Part shown: piece by piece, positions 16,748 through 19,276 of the stretch
Layout of the letters: each line of letters opens with the position of its first letter
Numbering within the stretch: position 1 is the first letter of the stretch
Source of the DNA: an uncultured Clostridium sp.
GTDB lineage: Bacteria > Bacillota_I > Bacilli_A > RF39 > UBA660
DNA length: 64,000 nucleotides
Direction of reading: 5' to 3'
Assembly: GCA_902492325.1 (NCBI GenBank)
Contig: CABULC010000002.1
Coordinates: forward strand, 262,411 to 326,410
The notes under the pieces: model-generated
Database searches by the model: none
Told to the model about the DNA's origin: nothing
The model's input: only the letters and a program-made list of their open reading frames with translations
Position numbers and translations under genes: made by a program

Positions 16748-17467
16748 TTATTTTAAATCTTTAAATACATTTTTAAATTCATCATTAATTACTAGAGATG
16801 CAATACTATCATAAGAAGTTGCATCTCTATTTATTATGACTAAATTTTTACCTCTAAATAGTCTTACTAAACTACTAGCAGGTTCAACTGTTAAAGAAGT
16901 TCCTGCTACTATTAAAGTATCACATTTAGATAAAACTTCTATTGATCGATTTAATGTATATTCATCAAGCATCTCTCCGTATAATACAACATCAGGTTTT
17001 ACAAGACTTCCACATTCACATAAAGGAATATCTTTAGAATTAAATACATATTCAGCATCATAGAATTTATGACATTTAATACAATGATTTTTATATATAG
17101 TTCCATGCAGCTCAAGTACATTAGTACTCCCTGCTTTAGTATGTAAACCATCAATATTCTGGGTAACTATCGCTTTTAGTTTTCCCATCTTTTCAAGTTT
17201 AACCATATATTTATGTATTATATTAGGCTCAACATTCAAACAGTTTAATTTATCTTTATAAAATTTATAAAATTCACTAGTATTATGATAGAAAAAGCCA
17301 CTACTTAGTATTAATTCAGGTGGAAACTTATATTTCATATTATAAAGTCCATCTTTACTTCTAAAGTCTTTAATGCCACTTAAAGTAGACACTCCAGCTC
17401 CACTAAAAAATACTATATTATTAGATTCATCTATTATTTTTTGTAATTTATTTATCTTTTCTTTCAT
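16748..17467 (-). CDS. cobB: NAD-dependent protein deacylase (sirtuin, CobB/Sir2 family)
   Basis: GAGVSTLSGIKDFRS, TQNIDGLH, Zn-binding CxxC...CxxC. Confidence 0.85.
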   Translation of the reverse strand: MKEKINKLQKIIDESNNIVFFSGAGVSTLSGIKDFRSKDGLYNMKYKFPPELILSSGFFYHNTSEFYKFYKDKLNCLNVEPNIIHKYMVKLEKMGKLKAIVTQNIDGLHTKAGSTNVLELHGTIYKNHCIKCHKFYDAEYVFNSKDIPLCECGSLVKPDVVLYGEMLDEYTLNRSIEVLSKCDTLIVAGTSLTVEPASSLVRLFRGKNLVIINRDATSYDSIASLVINDEFKNVFKDLK

Positions 17468-17558
17468 TATTATTCTCCAACATATTTAATAAGTTAATTT
17501 TAAAAATATCTCTATCACGATATTCTTTAGAAATCATTACTCCTTTATAAGTAGTCAT

Positions 17559-18638
17559 TTAATTTTTATGGCCTTCCAATAAAATGTTTTCGGGTTCTAT
17601 TGTTTCAAAAATAATATTTTTTTCATCTATATTAACACTATATATTAATTTAAAATCCCCATATAACTTAGAAAATATAGAATCAGTAGGTAAAACTAAT
17701 TCATATGTAAAAATATTATTATCTTCTTTAATTAATTCACCAACATAATTTCCATTTTCAATACTAGGATAATATTCAAATACAAGTTTTTTATAGGCTA
17801 ACATATTATATTTTTTAATACTTCTTTCTAATCTTCGATATTTCTTTTCATCGGAATATGTAATGGTGAAACCATTTTTAGTTTTTTTCTCCATATCTCC
17901 ATTTTGCATATCACCATTTTTATCAAGAATTCTATCCATCACATCATTTAAATTTTTAACTTGATTTGATAACTCATTCATTTTTATATCTAACGTAGTA
18001 TCATCTATATCTTTTCTTTCATTGTTATCTTTTAATTTATTAAGTAAGTCAATTTTAAACAAATTTTTTTCGGGAACATTTTTAGAAACCATAGCTTTTT
18101 TATAAAATGCTAACTCTGATTCAGAACATTTTATTAAAATATCTTCAGGTTGTATTGTTTCTAAAACAACAGTTTTTTCATCTGGATAAACACTATATAT
18201 TAATTTGCAATCACCATAGATTTTAGAAAACAGAGGGTCACTAGGTAGCATTAATTCATACTTTAAAATATGCTCATTCTTTTTAGAAATTTTTTTACCA
18301 ATAAAATTTCCACTTTCAATACTAGGATAATATTGAGATTTAAGTTTTTTATATGCTGACATATTACATTTTTTTAAGGATTTTTCTAATTTTACAAATT
18401 CTTCATCAAGCAAGTAAATCATATGAAAATGTTTTGAATGAGATGACTCTTCTTTGTATTTTGAAAGTTCTTTTTCTAGTCTATTAACTTTATCTTCTAA
18501 AATATCATTTTTATTCTTAAGTTCCAACATAGTATCGTTAGTATTATTTTCATCTTCAACTTTTCCTTTTTTAATAAAAAGTAAATAAATAATAACAATA
18601 AATTCCAATGTAATAAGAAGGTAAAATATTATATCCAT
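17559..18638 (-). CDS. Membrane-anchored coiled-coil protein carrying two tandem RelE/ParE-like domains
   Basis: N-terminal TM; internal ~110-aa repeat (YYPSIE[SN]GN...YEL[MV]LP[ST]D..FSK[IL]YGD.KLIYSV..DEK..[VI]..ETI.PE.IL) matching RelE/YoeB C-terminal strand pattern. Confidence 0.5.
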   Translation of the reverse strand: MDIIFYLLITLEFIVIIYLLFIKKGKVEDENNTNDTMLELKNKNDILEDKVNRLEKELSKYKEESSHSKHFHMIYLLDEEFVKLEKSLKKCNMSAYKKLKSQYYPSIESGNFIGKKISKKNEHILKYELMLPSDPLFSKIYGDCKLIYSVYPDEKTVVLETIQPEDILIKCSESELAFYKKAMVSKNVPEKNLFKIDLLNKLKDNNERKDIDDTTLDIKMNELSNQVKNLNDVMDRILDKNGDMQNGDMEKKTKNGFTITYSDEKKYRRLERSIKKYNMLAYKKLVFEYYPSIENGNYVGELIKEDNNIFTYELVLPTDSIFSKLYGDFKLIYSVNIDEKNIIFETIEPENILLEGHKN

Positions 18639-18640
18639 AA

Positions 18641-19276
18641 TTAGTCATCGCCTTTCTTACTTTTTCTTAATATCTCATCTCTCTTAGAATAAACACAACC
18701 ACAATAATCTTGACGATAAAGTCCATATTTATGAGAAAGTTCTATAGAATGTTTATAACCATTTTCTTTCTTGAAGTCAGAGTGTAACCATTTAACACCA
18801 TATTTCTTTTCCATACTTTCTCCAATCTCATTAATAAGTTCAGCATTTTTATATGGACTAACTGACAAAGTAGTACAGAAGTAATCATAGTTATTTTCTT
18901 TAGCAACTTTAGCAGTTTTCTCAATTCTAAGGTTAAAACATATAGTACATCTCTCACCCTTTTCAGGACACATTTCATATCCTTTAACTAGTTTATTATA
19001 CTTTTCATTATCGTAATCACAATCAATAAAATCTAGTTTATTAGGAGTTTCTAACATATTAAGTAACTTGATTTGCTCATTCTTACGTTTTAAATACTCC
19101 TCTTCTGGAGCAATATTTGGATTATAATAAAGAATAGTTATATCAAAATATGGAGTTAAATATGTTATTACATGAGAACTACAAGGAGCACAACAACTAT
19201 GAAGCAATAATCTCTTATGATTCTCTTCCACATTTTTTAATTCTTCTTTACATTTATTTTCTAAAATTTTGCTCAT
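18641..19276 (-). CDS. queH: Epoxyqueuosine reductase QueH (DUF208)
   Basis: LLLHSCCAPCSS and downstream Cys motifs. Confidence 0.7.
   Translation of the reverse strand: MSKILENKCKEELKNVEENHKRLLLHSCCAPCSSHVITYLTPYFDITILYYNPNIAPEEEYLKRKNEQIKLLNMLETPNKLDFIDCDYDNEKYNKLVKGYEMCPEKGERCTICFNLRIEKTAKVAKENNYDYFCTTLSVSPYKNAELINEIGESMEKKYGVKWLHSDFKKENGYKHSIELSHKYGLYRQDYCGCVYSKRDEILRKSKKGDD

Follow-up and report, generated by a model that had tools for sequence, protein, structure and literature searches.

In nearly all cases, proteins of the RelE/ParE (BECR) fold are regarded as the toxin half of a two-gene toxin-antitoxin module. The catalytic and mRNA-contact residues of reference are K52, K54, R61, R81 and Y87 in RelE, E46, R65 and H83 in YoeB, and R58, R65 and R85 in aRelE. 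The closest described systems also include ToxM and MMSYN1_0416. ToxM belongs to a toxin-antitoxin module with an antitoxin and is built from an N-terminal BECR toxin domain, a transmembrane (TM) segment in the center and a C-terminal domain in the periplasm (Gerdes 2025, PMC11980606); MMSYN1_0416 from JCVI-syn3.0 Mycoplasma mycoides has a conserved C-terminal histidine and an adjacent DUF4065 gene (Mushegian et al. 2026, PMC13621843). What is new here is a large unannotated family that has the toxin fold with no antitoxin, no canonical catalytic cleft and a novel tail. Like ToxM, the protein we describe joins a RelE/ParE-fold domain, predicted to lie on the cytoplasmic side, to a membrane-spanning segment; unlike ToxM, it carries this segment at the extreme N terminus, has no extracytoplasmic domain, contains duplicated modules spaced by coiled coils, and lacks an antitoxin. 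MMSYN1_0416, whose relation to the present family may be close or distant, differs in its C-terminal histidine and its DUF4065 neighbor, and the multidomain effectors Cami1 (CARF-RelE) and Txp40 differ in that the protein studied here has no CARF or sensor domain, just a TM helix and coiled-coil spacers.

The protein (359 aa) is encoded by an ORF with an ATG start at positions 17559-18638, stop codon included, of the window (the whole 64,000-nt stretch of DNA analyzed); this ORF and all other features given below lie on the minus strand. Upstream, after the 2-nt gap that the initial annotation reported and the ORF coordinates confirm, is the epoxyqueuosine reductase gene queH (18641-19276; PF02677 in orthologous loci), and downstream is a SIR2/CobB-type NAD-dependent deacylase gene (cobB, 16748-17467; PF02146 in orthologous loci). 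A search for terminator-like sites between queH, the ORF and SIR2 found none, and a queH-X-SIR2 operon that starts with queH is probable. The downstream SIR2 is housekeeping-like: a defence-type SIR2 was ruled out, because the gene has no PADLOC match and evolves like a strongly constrained CobB-type housekeeping gene (dN/dS 0.10-0.12). PADLOC-DB 2.0 likewise gave no match for the 359-aa protein, its homologs or queH, and the flanking genes, both in the window and at related loci, are housekeeping genes rather than those of a defence island.

The N-terminal TM helix proposed from the first reading of the sequence is confirmed by hydropathy and by AlphaFold2: residues 3-22 (18573-18632) form the sole segment of the protein above 1.6 on the Kyte-Doolittle scale (2.73 over 19 aa), and residues 2-22 are modeled as a helix. 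The segment is flanked by "MD" on its N side and "KKGK" on its C side. The predicted topology is N-out/C-in, which would place the modules in the cytoplasm; it follows from the positive-inside rule and by analogy with relatives, a simple charge-difference rule being ambiguous because acidic residues come behind KKGK. K/R-rich termini are seen in those family relatives that have two TM segments; most of the family lacks a TM segment altogether. The coiled coil said to follow the TM helix also holds up, as a coiled-coil-like helical spacer (aa ~35-64, 18447-18536) with a hydrophobic fraction of 0.88 at heptad a/d positions, for which the model of a 407-aa homolog gives a long helix, residues 43-75, at low pLDDT; Pfam returned weak coiled-coil noise only. 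A second helical spacer, absent from the initial annotation, lies ahead of domain 2 (aa ~214-248, 17895-17999; heptad score 0.80), corresponds to a helix at residues 225-251 of the modeled 407-aa homolog, and has a weak LPP leucine-zipper match (E=0.03). Searches of PHROGs gave no match except a function-unknown PHROG on the coiled-coil spacer of one homolog. The product would thus be a single-pass membrane protein whose cytoplasmic part comprises two ~135-aa modules with helical, coiled-coil-like spacers.

The two modules are clear duplicates, with 53% identity over 101 aa (BLASTP E=2e-37) and ~78% identity over ~260 nt at the DNA level. A tandem duplication had been recognized earlier with a unit of ~110 aa; the duplication stands, and the unit is in fact ~135-140 aa, made up of a ~100-aa RelE-like core and a conserved tail of ~35 aa. 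Module 1 consists of a core (aa 70-172, 18123-18431) with the topology β-α-α-β-[α insert]-β-β-α and a tail (aa 173-211, 18006-18122), a family-specific conserved C-terminal extension modeled at low confidence as a β-hairpin plus helix; it is the faster-diverging duplicate ("rep1 type"). The module 2 core (aa 254-359, 17562-17879), which terminates in ...LLEGHKN, has the same secondary structure (pLDDT 78-89 in the full-length model) and is of the ancestral "rep2 type" common to single-domain orthologs, sharing 80-94% identity with the modules of one-domain orthologs. Across the family, the tail follows the consensus E-L-x-x-Y-K-G-V-x-x-S-K...K-D-x-F-K-I-[DN]-L-L, with Y110, K111, G112, F125, K126 and L129 conserved; it is as conserved as the core, yet has no confident fold (pLDDT 40-65), and in the full-length two-domain model the tail and the interdomain arrangement are poorly modeled (pTM 0.33).

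The module has a compact β-α-α-β-β-β(-α) fold that superposes on solved toxins, its top structural matches being the RNase members aRelE, YoeB, YafQ and RelE. It differs from RelE, YoeB and YafQ by an extra helix inserted between β2 and β3 of the core and by the conserved 35-aa tail. This RelE-like fold is invisible to sequence methods. Pfam and NCBIfam scans of the whole protein and of each repeat returned only coiled-coil noise, with no toxin family at E<=10 (Pfam), and hmmscan against Pfam of 24 and then 63 family members gave one ParE_toxin match (E=0.013) and nothing else; none of the 13 families of BECR toxins in Pfam, among them PF05016, PF06769 and PF06296, was matched significantly. 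Profile searches against PDB sequences, with shallow and deep alignments, gave noise only (for example chlorite dismutase, histone H1 and nitrogenase), and a viral fold library gave no match. With hhalign, the aRelE-family profile aligned collinearly over 72 columns at a probability of 23% (E~9e-4), which is not significant, and neither were the alignments to the single E. coli RelE and YoeB sequences. Neither archaeal RelE (PHS013, PDB 1wmi) nor bacterial RelE/YoeB/YafQ (PF05016, PF06769 and PF15738) was recovered with significance in these sequence-profile searches. The RelE/ParE/YoeB fold proposed in the initial annotation is thus upheld by structural matching and not by sequence profiles: the search it suggested, against PF05016 and PF06769, gave no significant match for the protein, its repeats or the 63 members.

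We find that the module defines a family of 381 clusters at 50% identity, with at least 593 genomic loci in MAGs of gut Bacilli/"Tenericutes". In nearly all retrieved loci (78/80), the module is a stand-alone protein about 139 aa long (115-174 aa), and the membrane-anchored form is a lineage-specific derivative of this common stand-alone family. All named members are called "hypothetical protein" and have no Pfam domain, and NCBIfam, PADLOC and PHROG searches left the family without annotation. The stand-alone genes are under purifying selection (median dN/dS 0.23) and occur in housekeeping contexts such as queH/SIR2, sufS/nifU and PfkB/Smr. When three flanking genes per side were clustered across 80 loci, no conserved small or antitoxin-like partner emerged. 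The window gene has no adjacent cognate antitoxin either, its flanks being queH and SIR2 as in the orthologous loci, so the absence of a neighboring antitoxin remarked on earlier is borne out in the window and at every related locus examined. In contrast to RelE, YoeB and YafQ, these genes have no antitoxin gene and are chromosomal, syntenic and under purifying selection. Smr lies upstream on the same strand in 38/72 loci; we set it aside as a functional partner and regard it as inherited synteny, since insertions of 1.2-5 kb between Smr and the module gene are tolerated and Smr is absent from the window clade. Taken jointly, the RelE/ParE fold, the unannotated family and the missing antitoxin are very probably correct. 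The tail, the premature stop described below and the derivation from the common stand-alone 139-aa family had not been noted in the initial annotation.

Equivalents of the catalytic Arg/Tyr/His residues, which the initial annotation had proposed to look for in each repeat, are not conserved across the family. The column of RelE K52/aRelE R58 is Glu in 67% of members, that of RelE K54/aRelE R60 is variable, that of RelE R61/aRelE R65 is Lys in just 44%, that of RelE R81 is Asp/Glu in 65%, and that of RelE Y87 is His/Tyr in ~55%; the window protein has E, K, D and S at the equivalent positions in domain 1 and E, K, N and H in domain 2. These equivalences rest on sub-significant alignments and secondary-structure register rather than on an inspected structural superposition, so that nonconservation is firm at the level of the family and less so for single residues. 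The distribution of charge also differs, with the whole protein at a net charge of ~+2 in the family compared with +7 in RelE and +11 in aRelE. By region, the α1–α2 hairpin (+4.3) and the tail (+1.8) are positive, and the β2 region (-1.7) and α4 (-1.6) are negative. The family thus has a conserved basic surface on the lysine/arginine-rich α1–α2 hairpin and on the tail, whereas conservation does not extend to the basic catalytic and mRNA-binding residues of RelE, YoeB and YafQ, and its cleft segments are acidic.

We therefore favor a reading in which the family has kept the toxin fold and lost the toxin chemistry, the positions of the mRNA-cleaving cleft of RelE being variable or acidic. Since the conserved polar surface is instead that of the hairpin and tail, binding of a partner appears the likeliest mode of action: the module would bind RNA, the ribosome or an acidic protein through this surface, without A-site cleavage of the RelE type. 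Such a noncatalytic mechanism, drawn from conservation and charge, has somewhat less than an even chance of being right. The usual form is the stand-alone 139-aa cytoplasmic protein found in hundreds of species of uncultured gut Bacilli/"Tenericutes"; in the genus of the window, the module has been fused to a TM anchor and set in the probable queH-X-SIR2 operon, where it has repeatedly been duplicated, deleted and recombined. The role of the anchor would be to localize, and probably to oligomerize, this module on the inner side of the membrane. The initial annotation had suggested a ribosome-associated membrane factor or a domesticated toxin; the evidence leans to a noncanonical, nontoxic module, and we put the probability of the explanation as a whole (fold, family, missing antitoxin and binding module) at roughly 0.5. 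If the module serves in binding and is nontoxic, it would plainly exemplify the recruitment of a toxin fold to a cellular role, and the puzzling retention of toxin-like genes by reduced genomes (the minimal Mycoplasma cell with its quasi-essential RelE-like gene, for one) would become easier to explain; should it instead be an active effector that regulates itself, the range of single-gene toxins extends to a membrane-tethered tandem form. Either way, the family merits a Pfam/InterPro entry, and current finders of toxin-antitoxin and defence systems will miss its members.

The same residues bear on the rival view of a genuine RelE/YoeB-like ribosome-dependent mRNA interferase, held in check by membrane sequestration, low expression or the tail instead of by an antitoxin. 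The best structural matches are indeed RNases, and a YoeB-like trio recalling its Glu/Arg/His set can be read in domain 2 of the window protein and its clade (Glu59, Lys76 and His103), so that residual nuclease activity may persist in this clade; activity has also been argued, from a C-terminal histidine, for another relative recognizable by fold only (Mushegian et al., PMC13621843). However, no more than 44-67% of the family carry the putative catalytic residues, which speaks against constraint on a catalytic set. The net acidic cleft-equivalent segments, the hundreds of stand-alone copies in housekeeping contexts without an antitoxin, and the lack of PADLOC or significant Pfam toxin matches point the same way, and we consider an interferase unlikely.

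The module 2 tail is missing from the window protein because of a premature TAA stop (17559-17561), which arose from GAA by one G→T change; all orthologs (L001, L002, L003, L082 and L084) have GAA at this position. Directly behind it lies the orphaned, in-frame remnant of the tail (17448-17558), which opens with ATG and comprises 36 codons (17451-17558; MTTYKGVMISKEYRDRDIFKINLLNMLENNNERKDK) followed by the original stop (17448-17450). The remnant matches the module HMM (E=1.5e-11), and its 36 codons are intact and identical to those of the same-species ortholog, with zero substitutions relative to L001; the intact gene would overlap the start of SIR2 by 20 nt. An assembly error was ruled out, as public collections contain exactly this truncated 359-aa protein on 6 independent contigs from different sources; with the intact 396-aa allele, which has the same N terminus, on 18, the stop is a real allele. 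With the tail of its ancestral-type domain 2 lost to the nonsense mutation, the protein encoded by the window allele is partly disabled.

This raises the possibility that the gene, in this strain and perhaps throughout the anchored lineage, is a dispensable duplicate under relaxed selection that is decaying toward a pseudogene and has no current function. Besides the loss of a conserved element, the rate of evolution is in keeping with decay: the membrane-anchored gene has a dN/dS of 0.35-0.64, compared with 0.03-0.18 for five of six flanking genes (0.03-0.13 for most of them; the exception is PrsW, at 0.33-0.34), so that it evolves several-fold faster than its neighbors, and the domain 1 core reaches ~1 (vs. 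L003) or more. Lengths vary as well, at 238-256 aa in one-domain forms and 359, 363, 396, 407 and 423-429 aa in two-domain forms; the queH–X–SIR2 slot itself is occupied by one-domain genes (250-253 aa) or two-domain genes (396-429 aa). Against this, the ORF is open through all 359 codons and no substitution has accumulated in the remnant, which makes the nonsense mutation recent; the core of domain 2 remains under constraint (dN/dS 0.24-0.46), domain 1 is still a complete module, and the gene is kept in the same slot in at least three species-level relatives and in many metagenomes. Decay is thus an improbable account, on a par with an interferase, and a retained binding module remains our preferred reading.

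Fast evolution and changes in copy number would also fit a conflict role, in defence or as a toxin. One such reading is a toxin fused to a cis-acting antitoxin (compare CapRel, EzeT and fused relE-yiaG), in which the tail masks the core until some trigger (a phage protein, for example) sets the core free; an arms race would then be mirrored in the fast evolution and the shuffling of domains. The strong conservation of a tail without a confident independent fold, the elevated dN/dS and the polymorphic domain number are consistent with this idea, and 195 fused BECR toxin-antitoxin genes as well as TM-linked BECR toxins are on record (Gerdes 2025, PMC11980606). But the tail matches no known antitoxin or helix-turn-helix family in Pfam scans, and the allele without the domain 2 tail persists on its 6 contigs (one of 456 kb), which would not be expected if an active toxin had lost its mask. 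The housekeeping neighborhood, with no defence island or PADLOC match, and the ordinary purifying selection and conserved synteny of the stand-alone family further argue against it; the tail may yet have a neutralizing role, but a masked toxin is distinctly improbable. No better are the chances that the anchored one- or two-domain proteins form a new kind of antitoxin-free, self-contained conflict system, with a RelE-fold effector tethered and oligomerized at the membrane by the TM helix and coiled coils, silenced by the tail and released by a phage-type trigger. The domain 1 dN/dS of ~1, the gain, loss and recombination of domains, and the hypervariable N terminus would in that case be the footprint of an arms race, and the stand-alone 139-aa proteins the ancestral cis-regulated form. 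Least probable is a ParE-like, nonnucleolytic protein whose C-terminal region binds or poisons another protein, for example DNA gyrase. In comparison with ParE gyrase inhibitors, a ParD partner and significant sequence similarity are both lacking, and the fold match is poorer than that to the RNases.

The module occurs in further arrangements. The membrane-anchored lineage includes chimeric and double-rep2 forms, and a few relatives (P0036 and P0045) have the module at the N terminus and the TM segment at the C terminus or internally.

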